DNA from: Escherichia phage Haito_Bas83
Strand: one strand, 5' to 3'
Sequence record: PQ850604.1
Length of the DNA stretch: 44,876 bases
A program made the position numbers and the translations under genes. Positions 1 to 44,792 of this stretch are shown here, in pieces. Every line of letters starts with the position of its first letter. Position 1 is the first letter of the stretch. Under the pieces are notes generated by a model, which was given only the letters and a program-made list of their open reading frames with translations, ran no database searches and was not told where the DNA came from.

Positions 1-552
1 ATGGCAGAAATCAAAGTTAAGGGCCGTCGCGCCAAACTGGACGGACGAGTAGCAGTTACCCCGCGCCGTAAACCAGGCGAGCAAACAGAACACACCAATC
101 TTGGACCTGAGATCGAATACGGCAAGCGTCGTAAAGGCGGCAAATGTGGACGCCCGACCGACTACCGCACCGTGTATTGTGACCAGCTTCGCCGCTATTT
201 TGCCGATGCCGTAGCCTGGCAGATCAACTACTCCGACAAGGGCGCTGCGCAAGTCATCCCTCACAACAAGATGCCGACCCTCGGTCGCTTTGCCGCGGAT
301 ATTGGCGTTGGCATCGCTTGCCTGTACCGCTGGGCGCGCGCACATGAGGAGTTCGCCGAGGCGATGGCTGACGCTATGGAGTTGCAGAAAACTTTCCTGA
401 TGGAAGCTGGCGGTGTGACCATCGCGGCGGGCTTCGCTACGTTCCTGCTTAAAGCCAACCACGGCATTCGGGACGATGCTCCGCTGGATGACGACGAAGA
501 TGATAACGGCGACGTCGTTGTCGAACCTACCGGCAAAGGCCAGGGCGAATAA
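1..552 (+). CDS. terminase small subunit (putative)
   Basis: 183-aa ORF whose stop overlaps the ATG of the large terminase; acidic C-terminal tail (DDDEDDNGD); position and size typical of TerS. ATG sits at window position 1, so the 5' end may be cut. Confidence 0.55.
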   Translation: MAEIKVKGRRAKLDGRVAVTPRRKPGEQTEHTNLGPEIEYGKRRKGGKCGRPTDYRTVYCDQLRRYFADAVAWQINYSDKGAAQVIPHNKMPTLGRFAADIGVGIACLYRWARAHEEFAEAMADAMELQKTFLMEAGGVTIAAGFATFLLKANHGIRDDAPLDDDEDDNGDVVVEPTGKGQGE

Positions 553-1937
553 TGCGTAACTATGCGGCAGAACACCGCGCACTCGAACGCTCGATCGCAA
601 AGCGCAACCGACCGCCACGCCCTACGCGCGTTGCGCAGGCCGTTCGCCTGTATCAGCCTGATTGCCTACCGCACCAGGTGGAATTACTGCGCGACACGAA
701 GACCAAAATACTCGGCCTTTGTTCCGGCTTCGGTGGCGGCAAGTCATGGGTAGCGGCGCGTAAGGTAATCCAGCTTCTCACACTTAACCCTGGTCATGAT
801 GGCATCGTGACAGAACCGACTATTCCACTCCTGGTTAAAATCATGTACCCGGAGCTTGAGAAGGCTTTCGACGAGGCTGGATTCCGGTGGAAGTTCAACA
901 AGCAAGATAAAATTTACAGCGTGCTGGTGAAAGGCAAATGGACGCGCGTTATTTGTGAGTCAATGGAGAACTACACCCGCCTGATCGGGGTTAACGCCGC
1001 GTGGATTGTTGCCGATGAGTTCGACACCACGAAGCAAGACGTCGCAATGGCGGCTTACCACAAATTGCTTGGTCGTCTGCGTGCGGGTCTGGTGCGCCAG
1101 TTCGTCATCGTGTCCACGCCTGAAGGCTTCCGGGCGATGTACCAGATTTTCGAAGTGGAGAAGGATAGCCAAAAACGTTTAATCAGGGCGAAGACTACCG
1201 ACAACCACCACTTACCGGCAGACTTTATAGACACGCTGCGAAGCCAGTACCCGGCAAACCTGATTGATGCATACCTTAACGGCCTGTTTGTCAACCTTAC
1301 GTCTGGCGCGGTCTACAAGATGTTTAATCGCGAGGAGAACGCCAGCACCGAGGAAGTGCAACCGGATGACACGCTGATTATCGGTATGGACTTTAACGTC
1401 ACGAAAATGGCGGCGGTTGTGTACGTCAGACGGCAGCGCACTACCGAGAGCAAGGAGTTCCGCGACGAGATTCACGCAGTGGATGAATTTGTGGACCTGT
1501 TTGATACCCCGGCTATGATTGAGGCGATCGAAGAGCGCTACCCGGAACATTGTGCTGCCGGTCGGGTAGTCGTTTACCCGGATAGCAGTGGCAAGTCGCG
1601 TAAGACTGTTAACGCGTCGTCGTCCGATATCGCGCAACTGGAAGACGCTGGCTTCGAGGTGGAATATGACAGCGTTAACCCGCCAGTAAAAGATAGATTG
1701 ATCGCGATGAATACGATGATGTGCAACTCGAAGGGCGTGCGCCAGTATTTTGTCAACCTGGATAAATGCCCTACACTAGCGAAATGTCTGGAACAGCAGG
1801 TTTATGACCTGAAGAAAGGCGAGCCGGATAAAACCGCCGGTGTGGACCACATGAACGATGCCGCGGGCTATCCGATTGCGCACCTGTTCCCAGTGATTCG
1901 TCCAATCGCCGTTGTTCCAACCGTAGACTTCTACTAA
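552..1937 (+). CDS. terminase large subunit
   Basis: Walker A GLCSGFGGGKS and Walker B-like WIVADEFD in the N-terminal ATPase half; 461 aa; directly upstream of portal. Confidence 0.85.
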   Translation: MRNYAAEHRALERSIAKRNRPPRPTRVAQAVRLYQPDCLPHQVELLRDTKTKILGLCSGFGGGKSWVAARKVIQLLTLNPGHDGIVTEPTIPLLVKIMYPELEKAFDEAGFRWKFNKQDKIYSVLVKGKWTRVICESMENYTRLIGVNAAWIVADEFDTTKQDVAMAAYHKLLGRLRAGLVRQFVIVSTPEGFRAMYQIFEVEKDSQKRLIRAKTTDNHHLPADFIDTLRSQYPANLIDAYLNGLFVNLTSGAVYKMFNREENASTEEVQPDDTLIIGMDFNVTKMAAVVYVRRQRTTESKEFRDEIHAVDEFVDLFDTPAMIEAIEERYPEHCAAGRVVVYPDSSGKSRKTVNASSSDIAQLEDAGFEVEYDSVNPPVKDRLIAMNTMMCNSKGVRQYFVNLDKCPTLAKCLEQQVYDLKKGEPDKTAGVDHMNDAAGYPIAHLFPVIRPIAVVPTVDFY

Positions 1938-4989: not shown

Positions 4990-5002
4990 TGGCCCCCTTT
5001 TT
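4979..5002. terminator. rho-independent terminator, probably bidirectional
   Basis: GGGGGCC-GTAAT-GGCCCCC followed by TTTTT on plus; the minus-strand gene stops at 5004 and also has a U-rich tract after the hairpin. Confidence 0.6.
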
Positions 5003-5003
5003 G

Positions 5004-5768
5004 TTAGCGCGGAATACCGCAAATCTCGTTTAACGTCTTCACGTCCAGCGCTACTGCCGTTGACTTCGGCTTGTCCGGGTATGGAATGAACTGTTCAACT
5101 TCAGGCCACGCCGCGATCAGCTTCTTGTCAGTATTGTGCATATCCAGCACGCCGGTAACAGTTAGTTTGAACGCGTCATACTTCGCACGCAATTCACGGC
5201 GGGCCTTGTCGTTGCGGTCCAGTCGCTTGCAGAAATCATGATCTGCCGGGTAGTCTGCGCGACCGCGCGGGAGATATATCGGCAGCGCTTTTCCATCTTC
5301 GTCCACTTCGCACACTGACGCGAGCATAATTTCCTCGTACCCCGGTACAATATCGCTGAGGTCCGGCGCGAGCTTATTCATATATTTATCTTCCCAGTAT
5401 CCGCGATGAACGCGGTATTTACGACCGTCGCCGCTCAATGACAAGGTGCGAACGTTACCGCCTGCGTTGATTTCGAAAGTGGCGTCATAAACGCTGCCGA
5501 TACCTTTCGGGCGGTCGGTGTTATAGCTATATGTCGCCTTGTTGGTATATACGCTGACGCCGTACATCTGCGACTGGTCATCGCGGATTGATACAATATA
5601 TGCGCGTAGCTCGGCGAACGTGTGAATGCCTTTTGGCATACAGTGCAACGTGATGTCGTACGCCAGGTCGCGAGAGTCCATCATGATTTTTTTGGCTTCA
5701 GTCGCGATTTCGTGGTCGCGCAGGATGTTAGCCAGAATCTGGTTTTTAATGTCTTTTGTCAGTCTCAT
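5004..5768 (-). CDS. hypothetical protein (moron gene, function unknown)
   Basis: 254-aa intact ORF on the opposite strand inside the head module, flanked by its own promoter and terminator; no motif I can assign. Confidence 0.55.
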   Translation of the reverse strand: MRLTKDIKNQILANILRDHEIATEAKKIMMDSRDLAYDITLHCMPKGIHTFAELRAYIVSIRDDQSQMYGVSVYTNKATYSYNTDRPKGIGSVYDATFEINAGGNVRTLSLSGDGRKYRVHRGYWEDKYMNKLAPDLSDIVPGYEEIMLASVCEVDEDGKALPIYLPRGRADYPADHDFCKRLDRNDKARRELRAKYDAFKLTVTGVLDMHNTDKKLIAAWPEVEQFIPYPDKPKSTAVALDVKTLNEICGIPR

Positions 5769-25309: not shown

Positions 25310-25767
25310 GTAAATTTTGCTACGTTTATAGAATAAATTTTAGGGACCAGATCGCTGCACGCCCGACGGATGGCGTCAATATTCTTAGCGCAGTCTTCAA
25401 TGATGACCAGTTCGGACACGTTCGCATAGCATACAAGGTTGAATACGGCGCTCGCCTTAAACACCGGCGGCGGGGTGTCGTCCAACATTTCGCGCAAGAA
25501 CAGCCGACCAGACGGGAATATTTTCAACTGTTCGGCGGTAGTCTCCCAGCACGCATAATGCCGGTTAGACAGATACGCGATCTCGAAGCCTTGCTCTTTG
25601 TACATGCGCAGCAACGGCAGCATGTCCATGTTAAGGTCTTCGCGTACGTGTGCTTTGTGCCACTTCGCCCAAAAGGTTGATTTGGTTTTTATGCCAGGCA
25701 CCAGGTCAGCACGCGCATCACTTGAACCATTAATAACGCCATCCAGATCACAAATCAGTAGTTTCAT
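25297..25767 (-). CDS. HAD-superfamily phosphatase-like protein (putative)
   Basis: N-terminal MKLLICDLDGV matches HAD motif I (DxDxV); 156 aa. Confidence 0.4.
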   Translation of the reverse strand: MKLLICDLDGVINGSSDARADLVPGIKTKSTFWAKWHKAHVREDLNMDMLPLLRMYKEQGFEIAYLSNRHYACWETTAEQLKIFPSGRLFLREMLDDTPPPVFKASAVFNLVCYANVSELVIIEDCAKNIDAIRRACSDLVPKIYSINVAKFTCNQ

Positions 25768-25988
25768 TTTAAGCTCTCAATAAGGGTGTAACGGGCGCTT
25801 CGCGCAGTAAAGGAGTTGCACACGAAATGGCAACGCTGAGTCATGACAAGCCAACCGGTGAGGTCAAGGCCCAGGATGTATTCGGGGCGAGACGCGCGCA
25901 CCACACGATTGCGTCGCGGATCAATACCGTAGTCTTTTTGCATTTGGTCTACTACCGCGGGGTCGCGGTCAACGATTAAGATATTCAA
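25764..25988 (-). CDS. hypothetical protein
   Basis: 74-aa ORF whose start and stop overlap the neighbouring genes. Confidence 0.35.
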   Translation of the reverse strand: MNILIVDRDPAVVDQMQKDYGIDPRRNRVVRASRPEYILGLDLTGWLVMTQRCHFVCNSFTARSARYTLIESLK

Positions 25989-26454
25989 GGAGTTCTCCTT
26001 CGCTCATTATTTCAATTTGTGCGCTGCCGATGGGTGGCGCTTCGTCAAATATTATCAATTGCTGGCACTTGTTATTGCTCGGCCCAACTTCGCCGGTCAC
26101 AGCATGGATGAATCGCACACGCCAGTCCAGAAGAATTATCATGTTGGCAGTCTTCCGGGCCAGCCTCGCCCACTTCGTCGACGTGTCCTGATTCAGTAGC
26201 ATGACCGTATGGCGACCGTGCGCAGCGCACTCGACCCACGGCAGCGGATCGGAATACGGCGGATTGCACCACTTCCACCCTTTCAACTCTGACCAGTCCG
26301 CCTCAAGCGCGCTATGCTCTGCCGTGAAGTAGCGCGGTAACAGGTGATTGGTGTCGCTTGCCGCCATATCGTAACGAAATCGGTACTTACGGCGCAGCGG
26401 TTTAAATAATGCTGGCGGCGTGCGCCAGCTATCCTTTTGCTCACTCTTCTGCAT
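25969..26454 (-). CDS. DNA N6-adenine methyltransferase (phage Dam-like)
   Basis: SWRTPP near the N-terminus and the catalytic WCNPPYS motif; 161 aa, the small phage Dam type. Confidence 0.65.
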   Translation of the reverse strand: MQKSEQKDSWRTPPALFKPLRRKYRFRYDMAASDTNHLLPRYFTAEHSALEADWSELKGWKWCNPPYSDPLPWVECAAHGRHTVMLLNQDTSTKWARLARKTANMIILLDWRVRFIHAVTGEVGPSNNKCQQLIIFDEAPPIGSAQIEIMSEGELLEYLNR

Positions 26455-26905
26455 GGTCGGTGTCTATCGCGTAAAGGGCAATCTTGTCCCCTTTCTTTAG
26501 GATTCGCTGCAATCGCTGCGTCTCCGACACCCCCAAAGGGCGCGCGTCCGGGTAGAAGTTGCCGTTTGTTGGGTGTCTCCACGCGACCAGCACCAGGTCT
26601 TTACGGGCGACCGCAGACTGGCGGCCCTTCGGACGCACGTACGCCTCGGCACGTTTGCAATGCTCACGCAGACCTTCAGCCGTCATGCGATTAAGCACCG
26701 CGGTGGTTTTGTATCCGGTGCGCTGCATAATCCCCATCAGTTCGAACAGCAGTTCGAAGCGCTCCTCTAACTCCTTGCGCACCTTCTCCTCACCTTCATA
26801 GCTCGCAAGGTAGGTGTCTGCCAGCGCGTTCGCGCGTTCGGCCTGTTCGCGGGCTTCGAGGCACTGCGCGGCCCAGTAATTTTTCTCTTCTTGTAAAATT
26901 TTCAT
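26441..26905 (-). CDS. hypothetical protein
   Basis: 154 aa; charged, helix-rich N-terminal half. Confidence 0.4.
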   Translation of the reverse strand: MKILQEEKNYWAAQCLEAREQAERANALADTYLASYEGEEKVRKELEERFELLFELMGIMQRTGYKTTAVLNRMTAEGLREHCKRAEAYVRPKGRQSAVARKDLVLVAWRHPTNGNFYPDARPLGVSETQRLQRILKKGDKIALYAIDTDHAEE

Positions 26906-43001: not shown

Positions 43002-43169
43002 ATGTTAAAAAGTATTCTTGATCATAACGCGGACGCGCTTGCCGCACTGGCTAAAACGGAAGACCCAGGCGCGCGCGCCATTATCGCGGACACTATCAGT
43101 CATGCGGGTGTCTTTGACGCGAAGCTGCCAAGCCCGCCACCGCCGGAAGAACCAGACCCAGCGGCATAA
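43002..43169 (+). CDS. small hypothetical protein (55 aa)
   Basis: RBS AAGAGGAAACACAGT-ATG; Pro-rich acidic C-terminus; the longer track ORF 42765-43169 overlaps the endolysin and is rejected. Confidence 0.35.
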   Translation: MLKSILDHNADALAALAKTEDPGARAIIADTISHAGVFDAKLPSPPPPEEPDPAA

Positions 43170-43175
43170 ACACGA

Positions 43176-43201
43176 AGCCCGGTTAATTCCGGGCTTTTTA
43201 T
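43176..43201 (+). terminator. rho-independent terminator
   Basis: AAGCCCGG-TTAATT-CCGGGCTT plus TTTTT. Confidence 0.6.
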
Positions 43202-43205
43202 TGCT

Positions 43206-43235
43206 TGACTTGCAACCAACATAAGGGCCATACTG
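43206..43235 (+). promoter_or_regulatory. putative promoter with two TGCAACCAA motifs
   Basis: TTGACT, 18-bp spacer containing TGCAACCAAC, CATACT, followed by TGCAACCAAT. Confidence 0.3.
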
Positions 43236-43407
43236 CAACCAATCAACGAGAAGGAGTAACACACTATGACACGCAATGATATTTATGTACTGGCAATCTG
43301 GTCCGCCGCCGCATTCATCGGTATGGTTATTTGCGAATTGCTATAGCCCGCCGCCATAGGGACCGTGGTATATTGTCCACGGACCCATAATCAGGAAGTA
43401 AATTAAT

Positions 43408-44550
43408 ATGCACCCTCAAACTAAAATTACCGACGAGCAATTGATCGCTGAATTGCAATCTGGCACTACCTCGAAAGATATTGCGAAGAAATACGGCATT
43501 GCCCTACGCAATGTCTATATGCGCAAAGCCCGCCTGTCGAAGAAAGGCATTGGTCACGGTAACGATGCCGTAATCCGTAAGCGCGTTGCCGATGGCTTCG
43601 GCGTTAAGCGCGTATCCGCCCTGGTGCGTGGCAATGGCGAAGAGGTCATGTCCTGGGTCATCACCGAGCAAGACAAGGAGCGCCAGCTTGAAGCAATGCG
43701 CGCCGTTGTCGAGGGCATGAATAGCGAAATCACACCGGCAGCACCAGTGAGCGCTCCGCCAGTCCCGATCCAGGCGCTTGACCTGCTTAACCTGTATACC
43801 GTGTCGGACTTCCACCTGGGAATGTTGGCGTGGGGCGAGGAGACTGGCGAGGACTGGGATATGGCAATCGCTGAAGACCTGTTCTACCGCTGGTTTGTCG
43901 AAGCCTTCGCCCGCGCACCGGACGCTGGCACTGCCGTAATCAATATTCTCGGTGATATGGCGCATTTTGACAGCCTCGACGCCGTCACGCCAGCCAGCGG
44001 TCACGTACTGGACGCAGATACCCGCTACCAGAAACTGGTCCGCTACATGATTCGCATGGTGCGCAACGTGGTTGAACTGGCGCTGCAAAAACACCATAAG
44101 GTCAAACTGTTAATCGTCCAGGGTAATCATGATGAGTCCGGTATGATTTGGCTGGCTGAGATGTTCAATACCCTGTACGAGAACGAGCCACGCGTTGATG
44201 TGGACACGTCCCCGGACGTTTACAAAATGGTGCAGCACGGTAAAACAACGCTGTTCTTCCACCACGGACACAAAGCACGCTTTGACGCCATCGAACCGGT
44301 CATGATTTCTAAATTCAGACAGGCTTTCGGGTCCAGTGAGTACAGCTACGCGCACGTGGGCCACTTGCACCACCAGAAGATTGTTGAATCCCGCAACATG
44401 ATTGTTGAACAGCACCGGACCCTTGCCGCGAAAGACGCATATGCGAGCCGCGGCGGTTGGATGTCTGGTCGCAGTGCTAACGTCATCACCTATAGCGCCA
44501 ACTACGGCGAAGTAGCGCGCTTAACCATTAGCCCGGAAATGTTGAAATGA
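43408..44550 (+). CDS. calcineurin-like metallophosphoesterase with N-terminal HTH domain
   Basis: Phosphoesterase motifs in order: SDFHLG, ILGDMAHFD, VQGNHDE, FFHHGH, AHVGHLHH; N-terminal TSKDIAKKYGIALRNVYMRKARL is HTH-like. Confidence 0.6.
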   Translation: MHPQTKITDEQLIAELQSGTTSKDIAKKYGIALRNVYMRKARLSKKGIGHGNDAVIRKRVADGFGVKRVSALVRGNGEEVMSWVITEQDKERQLEAMRAVVEGMNSEITPAAPVSAPPVPIQALDLLNLYTVSDFHLGMLAWGEETGEDWDMAIAEDLFYRWFVEAFARAPDAGTAVINILGDMAHFDSLDAVTPASGHVLDADTRYQKLVRYMIRMVRNVVELALQKHHKVKLLIVQGNHDESGMIWLAEMFNTLYENEPRVDVDTSPDVYKMVQHGKTTLFFHHGHKARFDAIEPVMISKFRQAFGSSEYSYAHVGHLHHQKIVESRNMIVEQHRTLAAKDAYASRGGWMSGRSANVITYSANYGEVARLTISPEMLK

Positions 44551-44759
44551 TTAGACAAGTATTCATGAGCACGCAGGCCACCCGCCTGAAAGAGCTACGC
44601 AAGCAACTCGAAGGATTGCGCCGATTCGAACGAACGGCAGCGGCAATAGGCATGTCTATCAGTGAGCGGATCGAGATACTATCGCAAATACGCTACACAG
44701 AAGGCGCTATAAGCGAAGTAGAAAGCATGTTGACCAGATACTACGGTCGCGCCGTTTAA
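44547..44759 (+). CDS. hypothetical protein
   Basis: 70 aa, helical; ATG overlaps the upstream stop; followed by a terminator. Confidence 0.4.
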   Translation: MIRQVFMSTQATRLKELRKQLEGLRRFERTAAAIGMSISERIEILSQIRYTEGAISEVESMLTRYYGRAV

Positions 44760-44766
44760 CCCTCCC

Positions 44767-44792
44767 AGCCCGCCGATTTGGTGGGCTTTTTT
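44767..44792 (+). terminator. rho-independent terminator
   Basis: AGCCCGCC-GATTT-GGTGGGCT (one G-U pair) plus TTTTTT. Confidence 0.55.

Follow-up and report, generated by a model that had tools for sequence, protein, structure and literature searches.

An HTH-metallophosphoesterase gene of a Dhillonvirus as a candidate for a stand-alone DNA nuclease

The gene, its domains and its surroundings

The DNA analysed was a stretch of 44,876 nucleotides (nt) of Escherichia phage Haito_Bas83 (sequence record PQ850604.1), which is referred to in its whole length as the window. The gene in question is an open reading frame (ORF) of 380 amino acids (aa) with an ATG start at 43408..44550 (+), as read from the ORF list and the sequence. 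Its product is a predicted metallophosphoesterase with an N-terminal helix-turn-helix (HTH) module, and is proposed below as a candidate DNA nuclease. The initial annotation, made from the sequence alone, had given the ORF at exactly these positions. The gene region is 99.7% identical in DNA to that of Escherichia phage RuthEpting_Bas85 (PQ850624.1), a Dhillonvirus of the extended BASEL collection, and the protein is 100% identical to Bas85_0070, annotated as 'DNA repair exonuclease'.

In the circular Bas85 record, the gene is number 70 of 71, and the order reads holin, holin, endolysin, gene, 70-aa ORF, small and large terminase (position 1). The related phage 'rolling' shows the same order in a contiguous record, without a circular junction. 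Both records bear out the earlier placement of the gene after the lysis cassette and before the terminase, with one 70-aa ORF between it and the small terminase. The gene is an ordinary Dhillonvirus copy, and nothing about the window is unusual in this respect. As to the terminase genes themselves, the 183-aa protein encoded at 1..552 is the small terminase (phrog_3064), and 552..1937 (+), a 'hypothetical protein' in Bas85, is the large terminase (TIGR01547 E 8e-11; phrog_10250, phrog_2).

The catalytic domain (Table 1) carries all ordered motifs of the calcineurin-like superfamily (DxH / GD / GNH[DE] / H / GHxH). The GD, GNHDE and GH-x-H motifs of the initial annotation were found as G182-D183, G239-N240-H241-D242-E243 and G318-H319-L320-H321. 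Two further motifs, D134-x-H136 (motif I) and H286 (motif IV), had been absent from it. Conservation was read from an alignment of 83 relatives with 32-46% identity. Residues D134, H136, G182, D183, T194, N240, H241, H286, G318 and H321 are invariant, and H186 (ca. 96%), D188, D202, R206, D242, H285, H288 and H319 are at least 90% conserved. It had been conceded that the prediction would fall if the motif residues proved non-conserved on alignment; the metal-ligand columns are invariant in the 83 relatives. Because the phosphoesterase motifs are invariant at this degree of divergence, the predicted enzyme appears to be kept under selection as an active catalyst. Among 150 family representatives, 138 have GDxxHxD, and an N-terminal extension of about 120-160 residues precedes motif I in nearly all. 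Generic Pfam models stayed below threshold (Metallophos_2, PF12850: 22.1 bits, cutoff 27; Metallophos, PF00149: 20.0 bits, cutoff 21.5), and a precomputed PF12850 match was present on one close relative cluster. The family is divergent and is missed by these models, so that spotting the motifs by eye had been a sensible way to the correct assignment.

A confident AlphaFold2 (AF2) model was calculated from the 83-sequence alignment (mean pLDDT 93.8, pTM 0.81). In it, the phosphoesterase core is compact and extends from residue ~121 to the end of the chain, and the N-terminus forms a tri-helical HTH fold with a recognition helix (LuxR/GerE - sigma-70 region 4 - resolvase type). Pfam searches with 44 family N-termini gave HTH_1 (12 members) and HTH_23, HTH_28 and HTH_8 (8 each), and the best E values were 2e-10 for Sigma70_r4_2 and 5e-9 for GerE. 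The window protein itself scored 15.4-19.8 bits with GerE, under the cutoff of 23.5. Fold and family-wide matches together confirm the fusion of an HTH-like segment to a phosphoesterase that had been read from the sequence. The N-terminal segment is strongly basic (isoelectric point, pI, 10.35) and the catalytic domain mildly acidic (pI 5.99). Conservation is lowest in the HTH (mean column identity 32%, vs 39% for the whole protein), and some distant homologues align only from residue ~80-125 onward. Between the HTH helices and the beta-hairpin, the connector is modelled with less confidence. G77 and W83 of the hairpin are at least 90% conserved. No structural match was found for the hairpin and helix (residues 61-108), and only the HTH part of the N-terminal module has counterparts.

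Table 1. Positions in the window of the gene's domains and motifs and of the features flanking it.
Feature	Position	Strand	Remarks
Intrinsic-terminator-like hairpin	43174..43197	+	closes lysis cassette; upstream boundary of the gene's unit; 9 pairs, 6 GC, then T-run; invariant in 4 dhillonviruses
Sigma-70-like promoter candidate, TTGACT-N18-CATACT	43205..43234	+	9/12 matches, consensus match only; conserved in 4-phage alignment
Unannotated 26-aa hydrophobic ORF, MTRNDIYVLAIWSAAAFIGMVICELL	43266..43346	+	strong GAAGGAG ribosome-binding site; from sequence reading
Inverted repeat GGGACCGTGG-N8-CCACGGACCC	43359..43386		10-nt arms, 90% complementary; loop TGgTATATT (extended -10-like); candidate operator/promoter or RNA stem
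Residues 1-60, basic tri-helical HTH	43408..43587	+	helices 9-17, 22-29, 33-45; resolvase/LuxR/sigma-region-4 type
Residues 61-124, family-specific module	43588..43779	+	beta-hairpin (64-73/79-88), helix 90-106, Pro/Ala-rich linker; AF2 model
Residues 125-380 and stop codon, binuclear metallophosphoesterase domain	43780..44550	+	
Motif I, D134/H136	43807-43815	+	
Motif II, G182-D183 plus H186/D188	43951-43974	+	
Motif III, G239-D242	44122-44133	+	
Motif IV, H286	44263-44265	+	
Motif V, G318-H321	44359-44370	+	
70-aa ORF	44547..44759	+	start overlaps phosphoesterase stop by 4 nt (ATGA); phrog_20931 E 9e-48
Intrinsic-terminator-like hairpin	44767..44787	+	closes unit ahead of terminase genes; 9 pairs, 6 GC, then TTTTTTG

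The gene lies in a small unit between the two terminator-like hairpins of Table 1. A similar terminator-bounded unit, with gp18, gp17 and gp16, is present in coliphage T1. The 26-aa ORF upstream of the gene was found in three of four aligned dhillonviruses and is truncated in Sodalis phage SO-1; it had no PHROG match and may be part of the gene's transcription unit. The inverted repeat, 22-49 nt ahead of the start codon, has a single copy in the window, without enrichment of its half-sites. In the 4 dhillonviruses it is conserved, with uncompensated changes in the right arm. As RNA, it folds no better than shuffled sequences (z -1.6). No copy was found upstream of the homologues in T1, G29-2, K1ind2 and wksl3. 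The repeat might, tentatively, be a putative autoregulatory site for the HTH.

Downstream, the 70-aa ORF belongs to phrog_20931, a PHROG confined to Dhillonvirus and without assigned function, and had no match in Pfam or NCBIfam. Small downstream ORFs with a 4-nt overlap were present in 18 of 62 loci; these are unrelated to each other and to the 70-aa ORF. At the upstream end, a 40-aa coding sequence (CDS) of the reference annotation (Bas85_0069; 43102..43224, +) runs through the terminator hairpin and is probably a mis-annotation. An ORF of 55 aa directly after the endolysin (43002..43169, +) is actually conserved (SO-1 gp57; phrog_11068 E 2e-38).

Structural affinity of the catalytic domain

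The modelled core has the fold of solved members of the calcineurin-like superfamily. By two methods, the top structural neighbours were PolD DP1, Mre11 and SbcD. In Foldseek, DP1 and Thermotoga maritima Mre11 (TmMre11) ranked first (E 4e-8) and the class III cyclic nucleoside monophosphate (cNMP) phosphodiesterase Rv0805 next (8e-8); GpdQ, YfcE and MJ0936 were also close. The initial annotation had proposed a comparison with Mre11/SbcD-type nucleases and lambda-type phosphatases, and in this comparison lambda-phosphatase-like folds ranked low.

At sequence level, the family profile had only insignificant matches among all PDB sequences, and the phosphoesterases among these were all nucleases (TmMre11/SbcD E 0.31; Pseudomonas putida 'nuclease MPE', 6nvo, E 0.98). 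A single-protein search of PDB sequences returned only spurious matches to repeat proteins, and the NCBIfam scan only a sub-threshold match to PdeM (TIGR04123 E 0.059). In the HMMER alignment, the family was collinear with T. maritima Mre11 (2q8u) in four motifs ('tDyHLGm'/'SDWHLGV', 'GDflH'/'GDLLH', 'GNHD'/'GNHD' and 'GHlH'/'GHIH'). The Mre11-type variants DxHLG and GDxxH are accordingly present in the family. The His of Mre11 GDLFH is needed for Mre11 exonuclease activity. Three partly independent lines thus suggest the nuclease branch, by a modest margin; they do not demonstrate membership in Mre11/SbcD at sequence level.

Family and genomic contexts

The protein matched the hidden Markov model of PHROG 704 ('DNA repair exonuclease') over its full length (E 5.9e-161; residues 5-380 on profile positions 2-390 of 390). 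A HMMER scan of 1.84 billion cluster representatives (clusters at 50% identity) gave 4638 matches at E<=1e-3 and 1130 at E<=1e-30. The metallophosphoesterase motif match is therefore far beyond what chance would be expected to give. By tblastn, relatives were found in 2074 of 50,697 phage records. They include Dhillonvirus, Drexlerviridae (T1 group, Webervirus) and Guernseyvirinae (Jersey- and Kagunavirus), and further Vibrio siphoviruses, Pantoea podovirus LIMEzero, roseophages, Campylobacter CP8 and cyanophage Pam1. T1 gp16 (ST16) is 45% identical over 377 aa. In a published Drexlerviridae pangenome, the gene is persistent in 508 of 522 members and often followed by polynucleotide kinase (PNK) and deoxynucleoside monophosphate (dNMP) kinase genes (PMC13164509). 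The family is rare in cellular genomes, with 42 loci among 185,579 species genomes, a count limited by the search patterns used. Lysozyme or terminase genes near several of these loci suggest prophages.

The window protein is a plain member of this already catalogued PHROG 704 / T1 gp16 family and not a novel invention. Its architecture is that of the family, an N-terminal module of ~120-160 aa and a phosphoesterase domain, without structural difference. The position differs: the T1 gp16 gene stands before the lysis cassette and the window gene after it. Database names for the same protein are 'DNA repair exonuclease', 'metallophosphoesterase', 'oxidoreductase', 'DNA polymerase II small subunit', 'phosphatase', 'winged HTH protein' and 'transcriptional regulator', and the SO-1 homologue is annotated as 'putative transcriptional regulator'. 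The family name 'DNA repair exonuclease' is itself a prediction by annotation pipelines. The LIMEzero homologue (L004, 4998..6121) is annotated as two separate CDS, ORF27 and ORF28; a decaying copy, a frameshift or an error in sequencing could be the cause.

The setting of the gene varies between lineages. In T1 and Hanrivervirus G29-2, it follows the Dam methylase gene and small ORFs and precedes holin, endolysin and spanin genes, and in T1 it is far from the small terminase gene (terS). In Jerseyvirus wksl3 and Kagunavirus K1ind2, it is part of an opposite-strand island within the tail genes, together with an HNH endonuclease and a DNA-binding protein (wksl3) or an adjoining HAD_PNKP 3'-phosphatase (Pfam 6.7e-20) and a P-loop kinase (K1ind2). 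The LIMEzero replication block reads, in this order, DNA polymerase, 5'-3' exonuclease, endonuclease VII, the gene, a small ORF (ORF29) and a HAD_PNKP phosphatase (2.1e-18). In Vibrio phage K121, the gene comes after those for single-stranded DNA-binding protein (SSB) and an endonuclease.

Metagenomic contexts were taken from 65 IMG/VR loci with 45-55% identity, and their 1041 neighbour ORFs were clustered by BLAST. No conserved partner gene was found in these loci, as no neighbour family occurred in more than 13 of them. The commonest neighbours were phage lysozyme (13 loci), SSB (7), a holin with three transmembrane segments (7), large terminases (6 and 5), YqaJ exonuclease (6), GH108 endolysin (5), small terminases (4 and 4) and NinB (4). 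When 150 neighbours from 50 non-redundant loci were scanned with Pfam, matches to NinG, DNA methylases, Pol A, dNMP kinase, thymidylate synthase, dATP/dGTP diphosphohydrolase and an annealing protein were also found. As a rule, the gene stands where the replication/nucleotide and lysis/packaging blocks meet, and the Dhillonvirus order is one variant of this arrangement.

Several observations concern other genes. Those called 'polynucleotide kinase' in K1ind2 (L005, 5122..6161), LIMEzero (L004, 6308..6811) and T1 (L091, 4948..5478) encode stand-alone HAD_PNKP 3'-phosphatase domains of ~160 aa, and the PNK label is misleading because they have no kinase domain. The K1ind2 phosphatase gene is followed by that of a separate P-loop protein. 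At 26441..26905 (-), the window encodes a 154-aa protein annotated 'DNA ligase' in Bas85, for which Pfam gave no match and whose small size is quite unusual for a ligase. A 254-aa protein on the opposite strand in the head-gene block (L001, 5004..5768, -; window ~4991..5755) matched Nmad5 (E 7e-56), which hints at a DNA-modification function in the phage.

Two candidate identifications were rejected. The 'metallophosphatase' of the Metis paper was considered as a phage homologue and is a host defence protein. The gene is also not Ksap1, the Dhillonvirus protein that activates the Klebsiella immune sensor Avs2 (PMC11564622), a distinct protein of 74 aa encoded at another place in the window. 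An ORF of 74 aa with a TTG start (25764..25988, -; phrog_10685 E 5e-44), located between a DNA methyltransferase and a HAD/PNK-type phosphatase, matches Ksap1 in position, length and residues L39, L47, T50 and F60. It has V30 as in SECphi6, and judged by this residue may be an Avs2-evading variant.

Function and comparison with known systems

The protein is read, with moderate confidence, as a DNA nuclease of phage DNA metabolism. It would be a stand-alone, catalytically competent binuclear metallophosphoesterase (Mn2+/Fe-type) of the Mre11/SbcD/PolD-DP1 nuclease branch. A flexible linker would join the catalytic domain to the basic N-terminal HTH, which would hold the enzyme on double-stranded DNA. 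DNA would be the substrate of an exo- or endonuclease action independent of Rad50. One option is that it trims or opens ends and secondary structures of DNA, to allow recombination-dependent replication and the formation of concatemers; T4 gp46/47 and T5 D12/D13 process ends and secondary structures for recombination-dependent replication. Another option is host-DNA breakdown that feeds nucleotide salvage, together with neighbouring dNMP kinase and phosphatase functions.

The nuclease reading is supported by the retention of all five phosphoesterase motifs in the 83 relatives and by the Mre11-style DxHLG and GDxxH. Since the N-terminus is a true, basic HTH, its place on the same chain argues for a DNA-associated enzyme. 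The DNA and nucleotide enzymes next to the gene in LIMEzero, K121, K1ind2 and the metagenomic loci were also counted in its favour, as was its persistence in Drexlerviridae, with PNK and dNMP kinase genes often behind it. The initial annotation had suggested a nuclease for DNA processing or packaging: the activity stands as the best supported one in view of the DP1/Mre11/SbcD neighbours, and the tie to packaging is not supported, as the terminase adjacency is not conserved.

Other observations weigh against a nuclease of this branch. Similarity to Mre11/SbcD was not significant in sequence (profile vs PDB E 0.31), and hhalign with E. coli SbcD gave a probability of 2.8%, with the GNHD motif alone aligned. 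The chain stops at residue 380, directly behind the final strands of the core and a short helix, and by its length would have no residues for an Mre11 capping domain. No Rad50/SbcC-like ATPase was found among the 71 annotated Bas85 genes, the 65 metagenomic loci, ~36 genomic loci and the annotated phages. The most frequent neighbours are lysis genes, which are uninformative on DNA processing. The phage's replication block, ~8 kb away, holds a PD-(D/E)XK exonuclease (DUF2800), a VRR-NUC nuclease and an ssDNA-binding protein (Enc34-type), as well as Pol A; the need for another nuclease is unexplained because the DUF2800 and VRR-NUC enzymes are already present. A search for biochemical or genetic studies of any PHROG 704 / T1 gp16 family member found none in the searchable literature.

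A wider proposal is that the family is an HTH-guided, Rad50-independent nuclease of Mre11 type which degrades the host chromosome and salvages its nucleotides in virulent siphoviruses of small size (T1-like, Dhillon-, Jersey-, Kaguna- and Weberviruses). This is considered unlikely. Classical T1 genetics reportedly described such a function but assigned it to no sequenced gene; a literature search on this point found nothing. If the proposal were true, the enzyme would be the upstream source of degradation products (e.g. m6dAMP) that are detected by recently described host sensors such as Metis. A second idea, compatible with this one, is that a toxic nuclease could be autoregulated via its own HTH at the inverted repeat.

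Among the alternatives, a small-molecule phosphodiesterase would act on cNMPs, cyclic oligonucleotides or NAD+-like dinucleotides, either in nucleotide metabolism or to blunt signalling-based immunity, with an HTH that only localises or regulates it. Rv0805, GpdQ, YfcE and MJ0936 as close structural neighbours fit such an enzyme, as do the dNMP kinase, thymidylate synthase and dGTP diphosphohydrolase that recur nearby, and the generic motif set does not part nucleases from phosphodiesterases. The HTH fusion would have no obvious use, however, and the best matches by three methods are nucleases, with DxHLG and GDxxH conserved. No PADLOC defence model matched, and a metallophosphoesterase-type anti-signalling enzyme was not found reported in the literature searched. 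This reading is doubtful. A transcription factor, whose HTH represses its own promoter or controls late (lysis/packaging) genes and whose phosphoesterase serves as sensor or accessory, is judged quite improbable: catalytic residues are invariant and the HTH is least conserved, the reverse of what a regulatory core should show, the inverted repeat is absent in other lineages, and some distant homologues match only from ~residue 80-125. It would account for the LuxR/sigma-4 type of the HTH, the unique inverted repeat over a -10-like element close to the start codon, the SO-1 annotation, and the location of the gene beside the lysis cassette in Drexlerviridae (508/522, PMC13164509) and Dhillonvirus and near terminases in several prophages.

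An end-healing enzyme would resemble the calcineurin-type domain of Clostridium thermocellum Pnkp in being a 2',3'-cyclic phosphodiesterase/3'-phosphatase, and would mend tRNA or DNA ends with a PNKP-type phosphatase, kinase and ligase. The gene adjoins a HAD_PNKP phosphatase in K1ind2 and is one ORF apart from it in LIMEzero, some Drexlerviridae have a similar arrangement (PMC13164509), and a PNK-family phosphatase (phrog_415, 5e-31) and a small protein annotated as a ligase are encoded in the window. In T1 and in the window, this phosphatase is nevertheless far from the gene; the neighbouring P-loop protein is interpreted as a dNMP kinase and not as a polynucleotide kinase; and a second healing phosphatase would be redundant beside the HAD 3'-phosphatase. 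Lambda-phosphatase-like folds, among which we take the C. thermocellum Pnkp phosphatase to belong, score low, and end healing appears rather improbable. Even less can be said for a packaging nuclease, whose HTH would recognise pac sites or concatemer junctions and whose phosphoesterase would cut or trim DNA for the terminase. It has in its favour that the gene is directly upstream of the terminase genes in Dhillonviruses and within a few genes of them in some metagenomic and prophage loci. The packaging role in the initial annotation is unsupported because the place next to the terminase should then be conserved, and it is not: the gene is far from terS in T1, in a tail-gene island in Jersey- and Kagunaviruses and in the replication block in LIMEzero, and it has no conserved neighbour in the 65 loci. 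Moreover, a terminator-like hairpin parts it from terS, and complete large terminases with their own nuclease domain are present (window: phrog_2, phrog_10250, TIGR01547; metagenomic TerL_6 cluster, representative L039: Terminase_6C). Such a function is very unlikely. Least credible of all is a lambda-type Ser/Thr/Tyr protein phosphatase aimed at host signalling, which had been the other suggestion. It shares the superfamily, and lambda has the gene of a metallophosphatase (NinI) between those for replication and lysis, but the signatures GDxHG, GDxVDRG and GNHE of the protein phosphatases (PPP) are lacking in the window protein.

The value of the finding lies in a family that is large, persistent and of merely predicted function, not in anything special about the window. 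It persists in phage groups that dominate collections of E. coli, Salmonella and Klebsiella phages and therapy candidates. Knowing what the enzyme cuts would help to explain how small virulent siphoviruses, lacking an Mre11-Rad50 complex, deal with their own DNA and with that of the host, would define a minimal stand-alone Mre11-like nuclease, and would correct thousands of inconsistent annotations.

Compared with known systems, the lambda Ser/Thr protein phosphatase (PPP) is of the same superfamily, phage-encoded and likewise located between replication and lysis genes. P. putida nuclease MPE and PdeM, ligase- or Lhr-associated endonucleases of the DNA-damage response, are also stand-alone metallophosphoesterases without Rad50; weak profile matches to them lie around GNHD (6nvo E 0.98; TIGR04123 E 0.059). 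With Mre11/SbcD, the window protein has the DxHLG and GDxxH variants in common. It differs in its N-terminal HTH and hairpin module, in probably having, by its length, no residues for a capping domain and in the lack of Rad50/SbcC in the phage or beside homologues. PolD DP1, also among the closest structural neighbours, contains an OB fold and acts in complex with the DP2 polymerase. In the window protein, the N-terminus is HTH, hairpin and helix instead, no OB fold with a polymerase partner was found, and the Bas85 annotation lists no DP2-like gene. Relatives also occur in phages like T1, whose annotated genome lists no DNA polymerase. The protein was filed under neither Mre11/SbcD nor DP1 because neither significant sequence similarity nor an ATPase or polymerase partner was found and, by its length, there would be no room for the capping domain. 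Judged by modelled fold and motifs, it would nevertheless work most like Mre11/SbcD or DP1.

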